Below are positions 22,190-46,824 of a DNA stretch of 64,000 nt, in pieces. The translations under genes and the position numbers were made by a program. The notes under the pieces were generated by a model. It did not search any database and was not told where the DNA came from. It saw nothing but the letters and a program-made list of their open reading frames with translations. Each line of letters begins with the position of its first letter. Within the stretch, counting starts at the first letter, position 1. The stretch comes from Escherichia coli. Lineage in GTDB: Bacteria > Pseudomonadota > Gammaproteobacteria > Enterobacterales > Enterobacteriaceae. The stretch is taken from NCBI RefSeq assembly GCF_044324875.1, contig NZ_CP172185.1. One strand, written 5' to 3'.

Positions 22190-22272
22190 AAAAAAACCTG
22201 CTGGTGAGGCAGGTTCTTTTATTTACTATTTTCAGGCCCAACACCGCAGCCTGTGCAACATCGTGTTCCAAC
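22190..22272 (-). ncRNA. Predicted OrzO/OrzP-like antitoxin sRNA, copy 1 (about 80 nt)
   Basis: Minus-strand promoter TTGCAA-17-TATAAT (22307-22279), intrinsic terminator (hairpin 22197-22213, T-run on minus strand); 5' ~19 nt complementary to 22419-22438 in the toxin 5' UTR. Confidence 0.5.
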
Positions 22273-22799: not shown

Positions 22800-22880
22800 A
22801 AAAAAACCTGCTGGTGAGGCAGGTTCTTTTATTTACTACTTTGATGTTAAGTTACTGATAGTGCAACATGGCATCTCAAC
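22800..22880 (-). ncRNA. Predicted OrzO/OrzP-like antitoxin sRNA, copy 2
   Basis: Same promoter/terminator layout as copy 1; 5' region complementary to 23027-23046. Confidence 0.5.
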
Positions 22881-27281: not shown

Positions 27282-30200
27282 TTATTCAAACAGGGCTTCA
27301 ATATCGTTAATGAGTTCGCTGGCGGTGATGGCATCGAGTACGGAGAACTGCGCTTCCTGTGTTGAATTACTCCCCCAGCCATAGCTTTCCGCTTTGCCTT
27401 CCCATAGCCACAGCTTGCTTAAGAGTTGCTCGGCACTGAGTTCGGCTGGCGACATGCCGACCGCAAAACCTTCATCGATTTCCATGATTAACGACCAGCG
27501 GCCCAGAGGTTTGATCATCCAGCCGATCCAGCCACCGTCCTGCGGTTCACCACGCATCCAGCCTTTATTCGCCAGCCCCATTACCCGACCGCTCGGGCAT
27601 TTTCTGCCTGCCCAGCGGATCAATTCGCTGGCATTGCGCTCGGTTTCTGTCAGGGCGTAACTGTTACGGTCGAGCTGGCGGAACGGCGGTAACAGTTCGT
27701 AGTCGGCAAAAAGCTGACCAAAGGCAGCGGCATCCGTGGGTGATATTTCCAGAACGTGAGGAATGCCAACAGAGATATCGCCTTCTGGCAGGGTGAAAAG
27801 ATCATCGTCAGCGGTGCTGTAGCTGTTATCTTCCGCCACCCGAAAGCAAGCCAGTAGCTTGTTTTCGGCGCTATAAACGCCCCAAATCAGACGGCGGGTT
27901 AAGTGGCGAACCAGCGGGTGTTCAACCAGGAAGAGCTGAAAGTTTTCCGGCGACCAGCGGCGGCGCAGGCACATGGCGGATTCAAGCCTTGTCACCTGCT
28001 GGGCGGCGACGGTACGCGTATCTTTTTTCAGGAGTTTGTAGCGGTTTACCGCCTCATCAGCCCGCGATTCATCATCGCTTTTGTTTGGTTTGGGCAGGTC
28101 TTTCAGGCGGCTGCCGGAAGCATCGCGCACAAACGGTTTTAAGGTTTCATCAAAGCTGACGGTGAACTGACGTGGGCCAAAATCCAGCAGCAGCGAACCG
28201 TTATCATCCAGTCCCAGATCCGGGGCCAGGCGATCTTCAAGCTCCGCTACCGTGAGTTCGCGGCTTTCGGCAATGTCGGCAATTTTCTCTTTCGCCCGCT
28301 CCTGTAAGGCTTTGAATTTCAGTTTCTGGGCGATGCCGTTAAGCTGCATCAGGGCGATATCGCTGCTGATAGCGGCGAGGATATCAAGCCCGACGGTGGC
28401 GCGTTTATGCTGGGATTCGCCAGGCCAGGCGCGAATCAAAGGCGTCAGTTTGCGGGCGGTGTCATCGTTGCCGAGAACACCTAACGCAGTGAATGCCCAG
28501 CTTTCTTTAGACGGTGCGCCAGCGGTCTGCCAGGCGGTAAACAGATCCCAGGCAAATTCAGCCAGTGAGTCGGCGGTACAGGCGGCTTTCACCTGCAATA
28601 ATCCCGGATACAGTGCCTCTTCCTGAGGGAAGCGGAGCATTTCACCGAGGCGTAGGAGGGCGCTATCTGGCAGTGATTGGGCATTTGCTTTTAATACCGG
28701 GCGGGTCCAGAGCGATGGCTGATAAAAGGCCGGAAGAGTGGGGATTTTTGTCGGGTGATTATCTAAGGCATCGAGCGCAAGCAGAGCGTTCACCGCATCG
28801 GTTACTTCCGGCTGGTTATAACGCCGGGCGATTTCTTGCAGTAATGGCTGATGACCGTTTTCGGTAAGCATACGCAAGGCAGCGCGGGCGTTATCCTGGG
28901 CTTCACCGGCTTTGCCGAGCGCCGCGGGCAGCAGGCCGGTAATGGCGTGTTCCGGGTATTTCAGCAGCCAGCTACGGGCGTCTTGTCGTAGGGTTTTGAG
29001 TTTGTTGAAGGCGCGGGCGATCAGTGGCGCTAATTCGATAGCCGCAAAATATTGTGCTACAGGCAGAGCTTCTTGTGGATAGCGTGAAAAGGAGTGAATA
29101 AAACCCTGTAACCCAGCGAGTTGCAGGTGCGTCATGACAAACTCGACACCGACGTGTGGCTCTTTACTGAGGACATTCCACGCCTGCGCTGTTTTTTCGA
29201 TAGGCAGGGCGGCTAACATGTAAAGTTGCCATTCCCGTTGATAGGAGTGCCAGAAGGTTTTAAATTCGCTGATTAGCGCAGAATAATCTCCCCTCTGCCA
29301 GAGTTCTACAACAGCATCAGACGCTTTCATATACTGGCCATTATTCCAGCGATTGAAACCCAGACGTGTCAGGTAGTTCTGAATATCCTCTTTTTGGCCG
29401 ATGTCTATTTGATGTGCGTGCCAGCGATGCCTTGCATGAATCTCTTTTTCTGCCGTCTCGGTCAATGTGCAGCATGACTCCAGCGGTAATGGCGTTAAAT
29501 CCAATACCGGCATTACAGATTTTTTCTTTTTCGAAAGCCAGGGCGGTGAGACTAATATGGCTGGCAGCATATCGGCGCTGGCATGGTTTGAGGGCTGTTT
29601 CAGTTGTTGCTGGCATGATTTCAGTACGGCAACTGCGGGTGTCGAGAGCCAGGGAATGACCTGTTCTGCTAGTATCGGTTGCGAGATAAGCATCGTCATT
29701 AGCATCATGCGCCAGCGCTTTTCATCTTTTTGTGCCAGAAGTTCTGCTAATGCCGCCAGCGCTGCGTGTGGGAAGCGAACGAAAGCCTTTGTCATGCGAT
29801 CGTGGCAACGCTTTCCTTGCTCGCTTGCATGGATAAGTAGTGTAAGTGCCTGCGGGTGGTTGATATGCATCAACACTTCACCACATGTGTCACCAGTAGC
29901 GTAATGGGCAAAACGGGCCAGCGCAGTGACTCCTTGCTCCTGGAGTGCTGTCGCACACCAGATGTTACCGCCATAGTAATCATCAAATACCTGCCCAGGC
30001 TGTCCTGGATAGTATTTTTCCAGGTCTGCTAATACCTGAGCATCGGTGACCGTCAGTTTTAGCCATTCCAGCGCATATAACCCTTTTTGCCCGCAAAAAT
30101 GTCTGGCAATCTCATGAGCTACTTCTGGTTTTTCCGGCAACAATAGTGCAACCAGCGGCTGGTGCCAGGCGGGCATGTTTCCGAGAGCGGCAATCAGTTT

Positions 30201-31043
30201 GTCGGCGCAGCGCTGCCATACATCGTCATTTGCAAGTGAGAAATGCTTACGCAGGCGCATTTCAACCGAGGCAAAGCGCAACAGATAGCCAGGCTGCCTG
30301 TCATCCGGGGTGAACGTAATAAGATGGGCATCATAATCCCAGTCGAAGCGGATGAATTGCAGTGCAATGACAACCTCAGTGGCATATTCCAGACCACCTT
30401 CCTGGACAATTTGATCCATTAACTCTTCGTGATCGTTACGATTGAAGCCTTGTTCCAGCGCAACCAGTACCGCCAGAACCATCGGTGGTAGCGTGGTGCT
30501 AATCGGCGAGTCGATAAGGCCCACTGCTTGTGTTATCGCCTGCTGCCAGTCCAGTGAACAGGTGCTGTAATCGAAGGTGATCACCTTTTTAAAACGTCGG
30601 TGAGTATTCGCGGCGACGGAGCGTAGCAGAGTTAATTCATTCTCCTGTGGCACAGGATCGCCAGGCCAGCGTCGATGACTTAGTGTGGTTGGCGCAACCT
30701 CTGTCGGTAAAATGATTTGGGCGTCGTCTGCCAGCCAGGGGAGGTTGTCTCCAACAAATACTGGTTTGTCTTGTGGCAAAGGGGCTATTTCGGGGCATTC
30801 GATAACCTGGACGGGGACAGATGTCGGTGTTATCACGGATACTTCTTCTACGTAGCCCTTTTTTGTTTTCTCCGCAATCAACTTCAGTTCCGCTTTTTCC
30901 GCCGCCGCAGCATCAGCAAAGCTTTTTACCTGACTTTGCCCGTTGGTGCTGACTTTACCCCAGCTAATATGCAGCTCGTTTCCCTGCTGCTCCACCGCCC
31001 AGAATTTATGTGATTTTTCGTCCTGATAAATATAGGTTTTCAT
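27282..31043 (-). CDS. MolR-like WGR / DUF4132 protein, middle paralog
   Basis: 1253 aa; N-terminal WGR motif KFWAVEQQGNELHISWGKVSTNGQ; C-terminus ...SVLDAITASELINDIEALFE parallels the upstream copy. Confidence 0.8.
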   Translation of the reverse strand: MKTYIYQDEKSHKFWAVEQQGNELHISWGKVSTNGQSQVKSFADAAAAEKAELKLIAEKTKKGYVEEVSVITPTSVPVQVIECPEIAPLPQDKPVFVGDNLPWLADDAQIILPTEVAPTTLSHRRWPGDPVPQENELTLLRSVAANTHRRFKKVITFDYSTCSLDWQQAITQAVGLIDSPISTTLPPMVLAVLVALEQGFNRNDHEELMDQIVQEGGLEYATEVVIALQFIRFDWDYDAHLITFTPDDRQPGYLLRFASVEMRLRKHFSLANDDVWQRCADKLIAALGNMPAWHQPLVALLLPEKPEVAHEIARHFCGQKGLYALEWLKLTVTDAQVLADLEKYYPGQPGQVFDDYYGGNIWCATALQEQGVTALARFAHYATGDTCGEVLMHINHPQALTLLIHASEQGKRCHDRMTKAFVRFPHAALAALAELLAQKDEKRWRMMLMTMLISQPILAEQVIPWLSTPAVAVLKSCQQQLKQPSNHASADMLPAILVSPPWLSKKKKSVMPVLDLTPLPLESCCTLTETAEKEIHARHRWHAHQIDIGQKEDIQNYLTRLGFNRWNNGQYMKASDAVVELWQRGDYSALISEFKTFWHSYQREWQLYMLAALPIEKTAQAWNVLSKEPHVGVEFVMTHLQLAGLQGFIHSFSRYPQEALPVAQYFAAIELAPLIARAFNKLKTLRQDARSWLLKYPEHAITGLLPAALGKAGEAQDNARAALRMLTENGHQPLLQEIARRYNQPEVTDAVNALLALDALDNHPTKIPTLPAFYQPSLWTRPVLKANAQSLPDSALLRLGEMLRFPQEEALYPGLLQVKAACTADSLAEFAWDLFTAWQTAGAPSKESWAFTALGVLGNDDTARKLTPLIRAWPGESQHKRATVGLDILAAISSDIALMQLNGIAQKLKFKALQERAKEKIADIAESRELTVAELEDRLAPDLGLDDNGSLLLDFGPRQFTVSFDETLKPFVRDASGSRLKDLPKPNKSDDESRADEAVNRYKLLKKDTRTVAAQQVTRLESAMCLRRRWSPENFQLFLVEHPLVRHLTRRLIWGVYSAENKLLACFRVAEDNSYSTADDDLFTLPEGDISVGIPHVLEISPTDAAAFGQLFADYELLPPFRQLDRNSYALTETERNASELIRWAGRKCPSGRVMGLANKGWMRGEPQDGGWIGWMIKPLGRWSLIMEIDEGFAVGMSPAELSAEQLLSKLWLWEGKAESYGWGSNSTQEAQFSVLDAITASELINDIEALFE

Positions 31044-31055
31044 TGCTAAATCCTT

Positions 31056-34000
31056 TTAATCAAACAGTGATTCAATATCGTTAATCAGCTCGCTAGCGGT
31101 GATGTTGTCGAGCACGGAGAAAGTGGGGGAGGATTGTTTACCGTAGCGATCATAAGAGGCAGTGATTTTTACGCTTTCGACAGGCAGCAGGTCGCTATAC
31201 CCCGTTTCGCCATAAATTAATGAAAAATGTTCTGTTTCAAGTTCGAGAGCGCCATAAGGGGTAGATTTGCGCATCGCATAGACGCTGCCGCTTTCTTCCA
31301 GACGTTGCCAGCCTCTGCGTTCCAGCCCGACAATGCGACCAGCCTGGCAGAGCCGTCCGTCCCAGTGTGACAATTCATGGACATTACGTTCGTTATCAGC
31401 AAGGTGGTAACTACCACGTTCGAGCTGTTGGAAAGGGGGAAGCAGTTCGTAATCAACGTAAATTTGCCTGAATGCAGCGGCGGATTCAGGGGGGATTTCC
31501 AGCACATGCGGTATACCGATGTTTCCTGCTGGCAGCGTGAATAACTCATCCTGCGCATCGCTGTAAGTGCTGTCTTCTGCGACCCGGAAGCAGGCAATCA
31601 GCGTGTTTTCCTCAGTATATACCCCCCATAACAGCCGTCGGGTTAAGTGACGTACCAGCGGATGCTCCACCAGGAACAGGCGGAACTGTTCTGCCGTCCA
31701 GCGTCTGCGCTGGCACATAGCCTGCTCCAGACGATCAACCTGCTGGCTGGCAATGGCGCGCACATCTTTCTTCAATTGTTTAAAGAGGTTAACGGCGTCA
31801 GTTGCCAGTGTTTTATCATCGCTCTGGTTTTGTTTGGGTAAATCTTTCAGGACCTTTCCGTTTGCATCGCGCACTACAGGTTTTAAGGTTTCGTCAAAAC
31901 CAACGGTGAATTGGCGTGGGCCGAAATCAAGTGTCAGCGAGCCACTGCTATCAAGCCCTAAATCTGGAGCCAGGCGGTCTTCCAGTTCAGCCATAGTCAG
32001 CCCACGGTTTTCAGCAACTATGTTGATTTTCTCGCGGGCATGTTCCTGTAATGCAACGAATTTAATCTTTTTCGCAATGCCATTAAGTAGCATTAGCGCA
32101 ACATCGCTGCCAATATCAGCTAATACATCCAGCCCGGACACCGCCCGTTTATGCTGGGATTCCCCAGGCCAGGCGCGGATAAGCGGGGTTGACTTACGCG
32201 CGGTGTCGTCATTGCCTAAAATCCCCAGCGAAGTAAATGCCCAGTTTTCTTTTGCGGGTGCGCCAGCTTCTGTCCATGCGGTATACAGATCCCAGCCAAA
32301 GTCAGCCAGTGATTCGCGGGTGAAGGTCTCTTTGATGGTCGCCAGCCCAGCGTAGGCGGTAATGTCGCGTGGAAAGCTCAACATTGTGCCCAGGTGGCGC
32401 ATAGCGTCATCTGGCAGAGGCAGGTTGTTACTTTTAAGCCGTGGTCTGCGCCATAAGGTGAACTGATAAAAGCCGGGCGGTGGGGCGATTTTAGCGGGAT
32501 ATTCTTCCAGCGGATCGCTATCGAACAATGTTGCCAGCGCAGCTAAAACATCAGGTTGGTTGTATCTCCGGGCGATTTCTTCAATCGTTTCTCGCTGGTT
32601 TAATTTCACTAGCAGGCGGAGTGCCTGGCGGGCATATTCCCGATTTTGGCACGGTTTGCCCAGCGCCAAAGGCAGTAGCCCGGCGGTGGCATGGCGCGGG
32701 TTATTTGCCAGCCAATTAACGGAATCCTTGTAAGCCATTTTTTTCTGTAACCGCTGCGCCATTGGTAAGGCTAGTTCACTGGCCCCAATAAAGAGGGTGA
32801 ATATCCACAGTCGTTGATGATCTCGTTGCAAGCAGGTCATAAACGCAGGAATGGCTGTACTACCAAAAACCGCCAGAATCTCTTTCTCACCTGAATATCG
32901 CTCCTCAATGATTATTTGGTTGAGAAATGAAATCGCCTGTTGTCCCGGTAAGTAACAAAGCGCAGATAGATTCCAGCTTTTGTTGGCATTGTTGTGATAT
33001 TTCGCAAACTCAGCTTTTAGTGCTGGAAAATCAAAGCGCAACAACGCATCAACAGCGCTTTGCGGTATATATTTTTTTTCATGTAAGTCATCTTCGCAAT
33101 GCAGCCATTCATTAAAACCTAATTGCCAAAGGATTTGTTGTTCTGGTGTAAAAGGAATGAAAGATGTCTCCCAGCTTTCTTTTTCAATTAGTGGCAGGTC
33201 GGTAAATAAGGTTTGCTGTGATGACTGAAATTGCGCGATTTTACTGAATCTGGATATGTCAGTATGACTGATTAACTCTGTAATTCCTGGCGTGATGTCA
33301 GTGACGGCAGGGATGGGAAGCACCGGTAAATCAAATACGGGTATTACATTCGTTTTCTTATTTATTACCCACGGTGGAGCGACAAACAGCTCCGGCAACA
33401 TATCCGCAGTGGCGTATTCACATTCTTCAGCGACTAACTGAGTACGACATTCAGATAAAATTCCTGCCGCTTTAGCATTAACCCTGGGAATGACGTCAGT
33501 GACTAACTCTGGCGTGGCGGTAATCAGTTTGACAAGCGCTTTACGCCACTCTTTGTCTTCATGTATTGCCAGCAAAGTAGCATAAGCGGCAAGAGCCGCA
33601 GCGGGATGTTTTTGACAGGCTTTGCTTAAGTATTCCAGGTGCTTTTTCTTGCCAATCACACCGAGGATCAGAATTTGAATCGCATCCGGGTGATTCGTTT
33701 TCCATAGCCATTTGACAAGATCTTCAGTCTCGCTGATACGCTCGAAAAGATAAGTGGGATTGTCAGAATGCTCTTCCGTAAACTCAAGAAGTATCCGGCT
33801 TACACCGCGCACCCCATTATTTGCCAGCAACATTGCCAGATAAGCGCGAAAATCATGATACAACGGTGGGAAGTCGTATTTTTCTGCTGTAGTCAGAGCG
33901 GCGTCATCGGTTACCACCAGTCTTAACCAGGTCATCGCCGGAACGTTTTGATCTGCATAACGTAGCGCCATAGCATTGGCAATATCCGGGCGTTCAGGGA

Positions 34001-34853
34001 GCAGTAACGCCGCAAAAGGTTGTCGTGCTGGGGATAGCGAGGGAATAGCAGCGAGTACTTTATCTACACAGCGTTGCCACTCATCTTCTGAAGCGAGTGA
34101 AAGATGATGACATAGACGTTGATGCCAACTAGGTAGCGATTCTGCTTCGTGATTAGGTGGAATGATGGTGGTTACTGCGCCTTTTACTGGTTTATATTTG
34201 AGTTGAAGAGCGAGAAGGGCGATTTCAACGGCACTTTCCAGACCACAGCGAATGACTAAGTCATCGACCAGTTCATCTTGAGAGTAAGAGTTCCAAAAGC
34301 CCCAGAGCAATGCTGCATCAGATTGCGCACTCCCTGTCGGTTGATTACCCTTAACTCGAATTTGTAACTCAGCAAAAGCCTGCTGCCAGTTTTCTGGATA
34401 AGAGCGGTAATTGTTGTCGGGATCATATGCCCTGGTGTTATTCGCGATGCGCTTCCATATTTGGCCATCTTTGTACAGATAATTGATCTCTCTGGGGCGA
34501 GAGCGATGAGGAAAAGCAAATCGATTAATATCGTCAGTGACCGGAATGACTGCATCATCAGCCAGCCATGGGCGTTTGTTTTTACTCTCAAGGGAGGTTT
34601 CAACTTCAGGAGTGGCTTTGGTGATGGGGGGGATATGCACGTTTGCTGAAGCATTTTCCACATAGCCTTTTTTCGTTTTCTCTGCGATCAGCTTAAGCTC
34701 CGCTTTTGCCGCTGCCGCAGCATCCGCAAAGCTTTTTACCTGGTTTTGCCCGTTGGTGCCAATTTTTCCCCAACTGATATGCAACTCGTTTCCCTGTTGC
34801 TCCACCGCCCAGAATTTATGTGATTTTTCGTCCTGAAAGATAAAGTGTCTCAT
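31056..34853 (-). CDS. molR: MolR (annotated molybdate metabolism regulator; WGR / DUF4132), intact
   Basis: 1265 aa; N-terminal WGR domain; adjacent to metG as in E. coli. Confidence 0.75.
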   Translation of the reverse strand: MRHFIFQDEKSHKFWAVEQQGNELHISWGKIGTNGQNQVKSFADAAAAAKAELKLIAEKTKKGYVENASANVHIPPITKATPEVETSLESKNKRPWLADDAVIPVTDDINRFAFPHRSRPREINYLYKDGQIWKRIANNTRAYDPDNNYRSYPENWQQAFAELQIRVKGNQPTGSAQSDAALLWGFWNSYSQDELVDDLVIRCGLESAVEIALLALQLKYKPVKGAVTTIIPPNHEAESLPSWHQRLCHHLSLASEDEWQRCVDKVLAAIPSLSPARQPFAALLLPERPDIANAMALRYADQNVPAMTWLRLVVTDDAALTTAEKYDFPPLYHDFRAYLAMLLANNGVRGVSRILLEFTEEHSDNPTYLFERISETEDLVKWLWKTNHPDAIQILILGVIGKKKHLEYLSKACQKHPAAALAAYATLLAIHEDKEWRKALVKLITATPELVTDVIPRVNAKAAGILSECRTQLVAEECEYATADMLPELFVAPPWVINKKTNVIPVFDLPVLPIPAVTDITPGITELISHTDISRFSKIAQFQSSQQTLFTDLPLIEKESWETSFIPFTPEQQILWQLGFNEWLHCEDDLHEKKYIPQSAVDALLRFDFPALKAEFAKYHNNANKSWNLSALCYLPGQQAISFLNQIIIEERYSGEKEILAVFGSTAIPAFMTCLQRDHQRLWIFTLFIGASELALPMAQRLQKKMAYKDSVNWLANNPRHATAGLLPLALGKPCQNREYARQALRLLVKLNQRETIEEIARRYNQPDVLAALATLFDSDPLEEYPAKIAPPPGFYQFTLWRRPRLKSNNLPLPDDAMRHLGTMLSFPRDITAYAGLATIKETFTRESLADFGWDLYTAWTEAGAPAKENWAFTSLGILGNDDTARKSTPLIRAWPGESQHKRAVSGLDVLADIGSDVALMLLNGIAKKIKFVALQEHAREKINIVAENRGLTMAELEDRLAPDLGLDSSGSLTLDFGPRQFTVGFDETLKPVVRDANGKVLKDLPKQNQSDDKTLATDAVNLFKQLKKDVRAIASQQVDRLEQAMCQRRRWTAEQFRLFLVEHPLVRHLTRRLLWGVYTEENTLIACFRVAEDSTYSDAQDELFTLPAGNIGIPHVLEIPPESAAAFRQIYVDYELLPPFQQLERGSYHLADNERNVHELSHWDGRLCQAGRIVGLERRGWQRLEESGSVYAMRKSTPYGALELETEHFSLIYGETGYSDLLPVESVKITASYDRYGKQSSPTFSVLDNITASELINDIESLFD

Positions 34854-44589: not shown

Positions 44590-45420
44590 TTATCGCATTA
44601 TGCCCATAAAGCCATGCACACCCATATACACACCAACTAAGCCAATCAACAGACTGGAAAAATAGGGGGCGCGTTTAGCGAGAGTGTTAAATCCGCCCCA
44701 GCGTTTTGCAACCTGCTGAACGCTGATTGCTGCGCCAACGCCTACGGTGACCAGCGTTAACGCCAGGCCGATGCTGAAACTGACGACCAGTGTTGCGCCC
44801 AGTGTCAGGGCTTTCAACTGAATGCAAATCAACAGCACGGTAATTGCTGCCGGGCAGGGGATAAGGCCACCGGTTAAGCCAAATAACAAAATTTGCCAGT
44901 TGGTGACCTCTCTACCATCAAAGCGTCGTTTAATGTCATTGGCATGGGCTCGTGCATGAGCATCCTGATACTCCCAGTGTTCGTGATGGTGATGATGTCC
45001 ATGGTCGTGGTGATCTTCGTGATCGTGATGACGGTGATGATGCTCATGATCATGCCCGTGCATATTCTCCAGCCAGTTGCGTTCGCCGCGCCAGGTACGC
45101 CAGAACATCCAGAACGCGGTGCCAATAATGATCACCGCGGAAATCAACTGGAGCCACGGTTCCGCCGACTGCGCAGTAAAGCGTTTGCTGATCACCATCC
45201 CGCCAAAGGCAATTAACCAGACCACTGCGGTATGCGAAATAGTTGCTGCCAGTCCGAGCATCACCGCCTGTTTAATGGTGCCTTTGATGGCGATGATAAA
45301 CGCCGCCATCATCGTTTTTGAGTGCCCTGGTTCCAGGCCATGAAGCGCACCAAGTAAGATGGTGCTGGGGATGAAGAACCAGGCGTTTCCTTGCTGAAGA
45401 AGAGTGGTAAATTCGGTCAT
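44590..45420 (-). CDS. rcnA: Nickel/cobalt efflux permease RcnA
   Basis: Membrane protein with a long His-rich loop (HGHDHEHHHRHHDHEDHHDHGHHHHHEH). Confidence 0.92.
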   Translation of the reverse strand: MTEFTTLLQQGNAWFFIPSTILLGALHGLEPGHSKTMMAAFIIAIKGTIKQAVMLGLAATISHTAVVWLIAFGGMVISKRFTAQSAEPWLQLISAVIIIGTAFWMFWRTWRGERNWLENMHGHDHEHHHRHHDHEDHHDHGHHHHHEHWEYQDAHARAHANDIKRRFDGREVTNWQILLFGLTGGLIPCPAAITVLLICIQLKALTLGATLVVSFSIGLALTLVTVGVGAAISVQQVAKRWGGFNTLAKRAPYFSSLLIGLVGVYMGVHGFMGIMR

Positions 45421-45540: not shown

Positions 45541-45813
45541 ATGTCTCATACAATCCGTGATAAACAGAAACTGAAAGCGCGTGCCAGTAAGATTCAGGGC
45601 CAGGTCGTGGCGCTCAAGAAAATGCTCGACGAGCCGCACGAATGCGCTGCATTTTTACAACAGATTGCTGCTATCCGTGGCGCGGTAAACGGTCTGATGC
45701 GGGAAGTGATTAAAGGTCATCTGACGGAACACATCGTTCACCAGGGGGATGAGCTAAAACGTGAAGAAGATCTGGATGTCGTTCTGAAGGTGCTGGATTC
45801 TTATATCAAATAA
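45541..45813 (+). CDS. rcnR: Ni/Co-responsive repressor RcnR (CsoR/RcnR family)
   Basis: 90 aa, [21 protein letters not shown]... Confidence 0.92.
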
Positions 45814-45904
45814 TTTATTAACGCGATTGTAAAACTGCGGTTTTTCCTCGTTTACAACGCGTGCGCTGGACATTACCATCCTCCTCTGCGATTTATCATC
45901 GCAA

Positions 45905-46035
45905 CCAAACGACTCGGGGTGCCCTTCTGCGTGAAGGCTGAGAAATACCCGTATCACCTGATCTGGATAATGCCAGCGTAGGGAAGTCACGGACCACCAG
46001 GTCATTGCTTCTTCACGTTATGGCAGGAGCAAACT
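45905..46035 (+). promoter_or_regulatory. TPP (thi-box) riboswitch in the thiM leader
   Basis: Sequence ...ggggtgcccttctgcgtgaaggctgagaaatacccgtatcacctgatctggataatgccagcgtagggaa... is the canonical thiM aptamer; the SD/AUG follow. Confidence 0.9.
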
Positions 46036-46824
46036 ATGCAAGTCGACCTGCTGAGTTCCGCGCAATCTGCGCACGCGTTACATCTTTTTCACCAACATTC
46101 CCCTCTTGTGCACTGCATGACCAACGATGTGGTGCAAACCTTTACTGCCAATACCTTGCTGGCGCTCGGTGCATCGCCAGCGATGGTTATCGAAACCGAA
46201 GAGGCCAGTCAGTTTGCGGCTATCGCCAGTGCGTTGCTGATTAACGTTGGCACGCTGACGCAGCAACGCGCACAGGCGATGCGTGCCGCTGTTGAACAGG
46301 CAAAACGCTCTCAAACACCCTGGACGCTTGATCCGGTCGCGGTTGGCGCACTCGATTATCGCCGCCGCTTTTGTCATGACCTTTTATCGTTAAAGCCTGC
46401 TGCCATACGCGGTAATGCTTCGGAAATAATGGCATTAGCAGGCATCGCCAATGGTGGTCGTGGTGTGGATACTACTGACGCCGCCGCCAACGCATTGCCC
46501 GCCGCACAAACTCTGGCAAGTGAAACAGGGGCTGTCATCGTGGTCACTGGCGAGGTGGATTATGTTACCGATGGTCGTCGCACCGTTGGCATTCACGGTG
46601 GCGATCCGCTAATGACCAGAGTGGTAGGAACTGGCTGTGCATTATCGGCGGTTGTCGCTGCCTGTTGTGCGCTACCAGGCGATACGCTGGAAAATATCGC
46701 ATCTGCCTGTCACTGGATGAAACAAGCCGGAGAACGCGCAGTCGCCAGTAGCGAGGGGCCAGGCAGTTTTGTTCCACATTTCCTTGATGCGCTCTGGCAA
46801 TTGACGCAGGAGGTGCAGGCGTGA
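46036..46824 (+). CDS. thiM: Hydroxyethylthiazole kinase
   Basis: 262 aa, [30 protein letters not shown]... Confidence 0.92.

Follow-up and report, generated by a model that had tools for sequence, protein, structure and literature searches.

Positions 45905–46035 of the window (the whole 64,000-nucleotide stretch of Escherichia coli DNA that we analysed) are almost certainly the E. coli thiM TPP riboswitch, a leader RNA that acts in cis and turns off the thiMD salvage operon when TPP is abundant. This riboswitch is already known and ordinary, with every defining feature of the RF00059 family and of the E. coli thiM switch that can be checked present in the sequence, and nothing that we found contradicts the identification. 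The initial annotation had claimed a thiM TPP riboswitch between exactly these two positions, and both ends are borne out as the RF00059 match begins at 45905 and 46035 is the base immediately before the thiM ATG (46036).

The Rfam scan which the annotation had proposed as a check was positive. Scanning the entire 64-kb window with cmscan against Rfam 15 at gathering thresholds returned a single RF00059 (TPP) match on the plus strand at 45905–46001, scoring 71.2 bits (gathering score 54.3; E = 5.1e-12) and covering the model end to end (positions 1–105). The aptamer lies on the thiM strand and ends 35 nt upstream of the thiM ATG, with thiD the next gene along, and the thi-box CTGAGA listed in the annotation can be read directly from the sequence at 45938–45943. 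The full 131 nt of 45905–46035 are identical to those of E. coli K-12 MG1655 (131/131 nt). A 341-nt query around the leader found a match in 5424 of 5426 complete E. coli genomes, in 4369 of them at 99% identity or more; the RefSeq features lying under these matches are the riboswitch, thiM and rcnR, and the label given by PGAP to the matching stretch in other E. coli genomes is ‘TPP riboswitch’, upstream of thiM.

The aptamer can be drawn as a three-way junction of P1, a P2–P3 arm and a P4–P5 arm (the last with the conserved segment ACCUGAUC...GCGUAGGGAA) in which all of the helices are possible, giving 22 standard pairs and, at the foot of P1, a C-A apposition (see Table 1 for the coordinates of all features). 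In order to compare the window with published work we took nt 1 of the published numbering to be 45901, as inferred from the Shine-Dalgarno (SD) sequence being nt 126–129 and from G40 lying in the thi-box. With this numbering nt 83–86 are the GAAG at 45983–45986, nt 108–111 are the CUUC at 46008–46011, nt 126–129 are the GGAG at 46026–46029, the AUG starts at nt 136, and G40 is 45940, a position at which the G40A mutant has lost all ligand binding (PMC5499598).

Table 1. Coordinates of the riboswitch, its expression platform and the neighbouring genes in the window.
Feature	Position	Strand	Basis or remark
rcnR	45541–45813	+	Upstream of the riboswitch; rcnA lies beyond, on the opposite strand
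Candidate sigma-70 promoter, TTTACA / 17 nt spacer / TACCAT	45851–45879	+	rcnR–thiM spacer; consensus scan, weak
TPP aptamer (THI element)	45905–46001	+	RF00059
P1	45911–45914 with 45985–45988	+	Rfam alignment and inspection; C-A apposition 45910/45989 at helix base
P2	45915–45918 with 45948–45951	+	Rfam alignment and inspection
P3	45921–45927 with 45933–45938	+	Rfam alignment and inspection; C45924 bulged
thi-box core CUGAGA (J3-2, pyrimidine-sensing)	45938–45943	+	P3/P2 junction; G45940 is published G40
P4	45957–45960 with 45979–45982	+	Rfam alignment and inspection
P5	45963–45966 with 45973–45976	+	Rfam alignment and inspection
Anti-sequestor strand	45971–45986	+	Published nt 71–86; GAAG at 45983–45986
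Linker hairpin GACC-ACCA-GGUC, between P1 and anti-SD	45992–46003	+	Aptamer-enforced fold
Anti-SD strand	46005–46015	+	Core CUUC 46008–46011 (published nt 108–111)
Shine-Dalgarno GGAG	46026–46029	+	6 nt before the start codon; published nt 126–129
thiM, hydroxyethylthiazole kinase, 262 aa (regulated gene)	46036–46824	+	TIGR00694 333 bits, cut-off 256.4; RefSeq at matching loci agrees
thiM codons 20–34, K-12 Rho-termination region	46093–46137	+	Literature only, PMC5499598
thiD, HMP/HMP-P kinase, 266 aa	46821–47621	+	TIGR00097 363 bits, cut-off 205

The locus has the same organisation as in K-12 MG1655 (rcnB–rcnA–rcnR–thiM–thiD–yegX–yegW), with the riboswitch between rcnR and thiM, and thiD, whose first 4 nt are the last 4 of thiM, is co-regulated with thiM as the thiMD operon. 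NCBIfam equivalog models confirm the identity of both genes. An ungapped comparison of the 2081 nt from rcnR to thiD with MG1655 gave 85 differences, made up of none in the riboswitch, one in the upstream spacer (45839), two in rcnR, 67 in thiM and 15 in thiD; the thiM differences, which change 17 amino acids, fall mostly in a patch at 46237–46640. The claim that both aptamer and expression platform match the well-studied E. coli thiM riboswitch (RF00059; PMC1920254, PMC2018614, PMC5499598) therefore stands, with no difference from K-12 anywhere within the element and the same alternative pairings as published. The candidate promoter is the sole consensus match, agrees with the consensus at 9 of 12 positions (the shuffled region averages 0.5 such sites) and would put the start of transcription near 45886; the published numbering implies that nt 1 is 45901. 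The other TPP-responsive leaders of E. coli, those of thiC and thiB/tbpA, belong to the same Rfam family, bind the same ligand and combine control of translation initiation with control at the mRNA level. They differ from the thiM element in their loci and in their expression platforms, and neither is present in the window, whose single TPP match is that of thiM. We also note that RcnA (44590–45420, minus strand) is 276 aa long compared with 274 aa in K-12 and three other strains, the ungapped comparison with K-12 and strain 7/2 slipping out of register near 44980–45030, and that this indel is probably in a His-rich loop.

The SD-sequestering helix described in the initial annotation was recovered by folding. 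In a thermodynamic model which includes neither ligand energy nor co-transcriptional folding, enforcing the aptamer helices over 45905–46060 gave a structure of -44.7 kcal/mol in which 46005–46015 pairs with 46021–46032 and buries the SD, with 46025–46032 around the SD taking 46005–46012 as its partner, the GGAG at 46026–46029 lying opposite the CUUC at 46008–46011 and the linker hairpin at 45992–46003 also formed. The unconstrained optimum (-46.1 kcal/mol) instead pairs 45971–45986 with 46008–46025, giving the CUUC a new partner in the GAAG at 45983–45986 and leaving 46026–46028 unpaired. The SD has a predicted probability of being unpaired of 0.002 when the aptamer helices are enforced and of 0.65 when they are not, and among 300 shuffles of the linker (45990–46024) a single one gave a switch of this size. 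It should be noted that the plain MFE z-score for 45905–46050 is unremarkable (-0.98); constrained folds and the linker-shuffle control were used because this is not a measure by which a bistable switch should be conspicuous.

In silico, then, both of two mutually exclusive helices are predicted, one between the anti-SD and the SD and the other between the anti-SD and the 3′ strand of the aptamer, and these two alternative pairings agree with the published probing model. Chemical probing of the K-12 RNA found nt 71–86 paired with nt 108–125, with nt 83–86 pairing the anti-SD and nt 108–125 forming P8, and the SD (nt 126–129) chemically accessible only in the absence of TPP (PMC1920254). TPP binding by the K-12 thiM RNA and its TPP-induced rearrangement have likewise been published (PMC1920254, PMC2018614).

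These findings suggest a mechanism in which, as long as TPP is not bound, the 3′ portion of the aptamer (45971–45986, including the GAAG) would pair with 46008–46025 of the anti-SD region, leaving the SD (46026–46029) and the AUG at 46036 free for thiM translation. Binding of TPP, with the pyrimidine end of the ligand at the CUGAGA of the P2–P3 arm and the pyrophosphate end at the P4–P5 arm, would close the three-way-junction aptamer (P1–P5), keep 45971–45986 within P5, P4 and P1, and release the CUUC strand, which could then pair with the SD and block ribosome binding. The untranslated 5′ coding region of thiM would in turn be exposed to Rho, and early termination of transcription would lower the amount of thiMD mRNA. 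Direct binding of TPP by the window RNA is expected from its identity to the K-12 RNA for which binding has been published. What is said here of TPP binding, altered SD accessibility, in vivo repression and Rho all comes from literature on an identical sequence. By the same reasoning, TPP should repress thiM in vivo in the window strain and be accompanied by a Rho-dependent drop in thiMD mRNA.

Three other explanations of the element have to be weighed against this, and the one with most in its favour places control mainly at the level of transcription or mRNA, through Rho termination or decay, with SD occlusion being secondary. In MG1655-derived strains, a region of Rho-dependent termination in thiM codons 20–34 becomes exposed when TPP represses translation, thiMD mRNA (including that of thiD) drops when TPP is added, bicyclomycin abolishes the repression of a 34-codon transcriptional fusion, and Rho-dependent transcription stops have been mapped to positions 231, 237 and 262 (PMC5499598). 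This region is nearly unchanged in the window, where a single base differs from K-12 (46125), and it is C-rich (C 0.31, G 0.20). However, TPP continues to repress a translational fusion that has 6 thiM codons, and the same authors describe Rho termination as ‘triggered as a consequence of translation repression’ (PMC5499598); as the SD-sequestering helix is also evident in the window sequence, we regard mainly transcriptional control as improbable.

Attenuation of transcription by an intrinsic terminator, as in many Gram-positive thi leaders, is a design common in the TPP riboswitch family and is often found in the thi-box leaders of Bacillus. We found no terminator-like site (a stem followed by a T run) between 45700 and 46200 on either strand, however, and the only stable helix after the aptamer is the one which holds the SD and has no U tract after it. 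As the leader is without an intrinsic terminator we have rejected this mechanism, which we consider to have almost no chance of being correct, and control would therefore be exerted at the initiation of translation. That the element is merely aptamer-like, by chance or through decay, and regulates nothing in the window strain is every bit as far-fetched, given an E-value of 5e-12 against all of Rfam, complete identity to an experimentally studied K-12 RNA, and 0 substitutions from K-12 in the 131-nt leader compared with 67 in the 789 nt of the adjacent thiM.

The preferred reading, that of a thiM riboswitch acting through its SD, is also in keeping with what is seen in related bacteria. We searched one genome per GTDB species with a degenerate pattern for J3-2 to P4 and obtained at least 120 loci, with thiM directly downstream in 74 of the 120 matches listed, and aligned 73 Enterobacterales thiM leaders from among these. 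In this alignment the aptamer helices are 95–100% paired, and compensatory changes are found in the distal part of P3 (UA to CG seven times, UA to AU five times and CG to UA five times). The aptamer structure exceeded 500 of 500 shuffles in the number of cells paired, the number of cells changed on both sides and the covariation score, with 88.9% of cells paired compared with 36–57% when the partner was slid by one to three columns. CUGAGA is invariant in the 73 leaders but was demanded by the search pattern, which also imposes part of the conservation of P4 and P5.

Pairs of the CUUC:GGAG core can be formed in 52–73 of the 73 leaders, three of the four in at least 68, and the core is conserved with little covariation, as MAFFT aligns the expression platform poorly between genera and the two strands are both fixed by function. 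The thiM leaders of Citrobacter, Enterobacter, Kosakonia, Cedecea, Pantoea, Pectobacterium and others have the same aptamer with a near-invariant core, and have a CUUC-type anti-SD and a GGAG SD ahead of thiM as in the window. The linker and the sequestering helices of other Enterobacterales are in contrast unlike those of E. coli, with different hairpins in place of 45992–46003 and, in many, a long SD-containing helix (e.g., CCUGUCCGG/CCGGACAGG). At least two designs of expression platform are thus found behind a near-invariant aptamer, the first with a small hairpin and the CUUC:GGAG helix, which is common to Escherichia, Kluyvera and some others, and the second with the long SD-containing helix, which is found in Enterobacter, Cedecea, Mangrovibacter and others. 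When each sequence was treated separately, the thermodynamic model predicted a clear switch in Escherichia and its close relatives and gave equivocal results in many other genera, a difference we attribute to their expression platforms being built differently and from which we draw no general rule.

Within Escherichia the leader hardly varies. A single loop base (45996) separates the 131-nt leader of E. albertii from that of the window, and the leaders of two other GTDB Escherichia representatives differ at two or three unpaired bases. All of the Escherichia substitutions are in unpaired or loop positions (45954, 45991, 45996, 45997 and 46034), including the only variants of the linker-hairpin region (45991, 45996 and 45997), and in one E. 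coli variant it is only the P3 loop that is changed (45929–45930). The initial annotation had also held that the riboswitch confirms the species context of the core genes, and this can be retained at the level of the genus; with E. albertii a single nucleotide away, the riboswitch is not enough by itself to identify the species. The species comes instead from the flanks, with rcnR, the ends of thiM and thiD all showing 97–100% identity to E. coli genomes, such that the riboswitch marks the genus and the flanking genes mark the species.

The part of thiM lying between these conserved ends is more unusual. The patch at 46237–46640 (about 400 nt, ThiM residues 68–202) shows 100% identity only to E. 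coli O169:H41 Res13-Lact-PER13-34, i.e., to 1 of 5388 matching E. coli genomes, with the other 5387 at 80–90%. K-12 and strain 7/2 are about 86% identical to the patch, another Escherichia species representative is about 85% identical and E. albertii 81%, and the flanks of the patch are E. coli-like at 97–100%. This pattern is probably that of a rare recombination import. No donor was found among the 120 genome loci listed, among the Escherichia representatives or among the best 120 ThiM protein cluster representatives.

In some other strains the DNA encoding the aptamer is occupied by an inserted element. E. coli Res13-Sevr-PER07-33 has a 10.6-kb island between rcnR and thiM which encodes a tyrosine integrase, a TIR-domain protein, a NACHT-domain protein, a recombinase and a DEAD/DEAH helicase, and which is flanked by a direct repeat corresponding to window positions 45903–45981. 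Next to rcnR the native promoter region leads into a truncated aptamer, and next to thiM the complete riboswitch comes after island DNA. A different island of 7.7 kb is found at the same site in E. coli MRY15-131, with a repeat corresponding to 45902–45983 and an integrase 76% identical to that of Res13-Sevr-PER07-33, so that each of the two islands has a direct repeat of about 80 nt of the aptamer at its flanks. Strain ExPEC has a decayed remnant with flanks of only 13 nt (45969–45981, AATGCCAGCGTAG) and a thiM which lacks the aptamer and has kept the expression platform. This last element also contains an inverted 27-nt copy (24/27) of window positions 46007–46033, from the anti-SD through to the SD, on the reverse strand of L126:44365–44391 and about 125 nt into the element from its junction on the thiM side. 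The occupied sites are L127:19833–30534, L128:12179–20136 and L126:44175–49409, and the corresponding site in the window (about 45902–45983) is empty, without an island.

The integrase of Res13-Sevr-PER07-33 is carried by 31 genomes, and the riboswitch query found 290 extra copies across genomes and 87 genomes in which the copy is split, none of its parts covering 80% of the query. We tentatively suggest that the aptamer DNA (about 45902–45983) may serve as the attB of a family of tyrosine-integrase islands. A literature search found no description of islands integrating at the thiM riboswitch, which is weak evidence of novelty. If the suggestion is true, these islands would rebuild the aptamer much as tRNA-targeting elements rebuild their target, and in island-bearing strains the promoter control of thiMD would be replaced by island DNA.

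Other features were noted elsewhere in the window. Prophage tail genes (1 to about 4600) adjoin yeh/btsS core genes, and among the RefSeq features under matches at the window start are tail tip protein J and a protein with a tail-fibre N-terminal domain. As no E. coli genome covers 80% of 1–25000 in one place, we take the start of the window to be mosaic accessory DNA. Two tandem matches to the OrzO-P antitoxin sRNA (RF02083) on the minus strand (22190–22265 and 22800–22873, 101 and 92 bits) suggest a duplicated zor–orz type I toxin-antitoxin locus, which is not known from K-12. Beside yehI are two large tandem ORFs of 1253 and 1265 aa (27282–34853, minus strand) whose matching genes in L003 are annotated as DUF4132 proteins; here the window is about 3.6 kb longer than Res13-Lact-PER13-34, and the number of paralogues thus varies between strains. 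Further along, a 768-bp IS1 (58509–59276) with InsA/InsB ORFs on the minus strand, terminal inverted repeats GGTAATGACTCCAACTTATTGAT and GGTGATGCTGCCAACTTACTGAT and a flanking 9-bp target duplication (CCGATTTAC) interrupts gatD (galactitol-1-phosphate dehydrogenase) relative to Res13-Lact-PER13-34. The CyaR/RyeE sRNA (RF00112) is found at 62965–63050 on the minus strand (100.7 bits), about 17 kb from thiM, a position which we take to be the same as in K-12.

The value of the thiM riboswitch here is as a positive control, in that a well-characterised regulatory RNA was recognised from raw sequence. It also anchors its surroundings as ordinary Escherichia core genome lying between accessory segments of the window.
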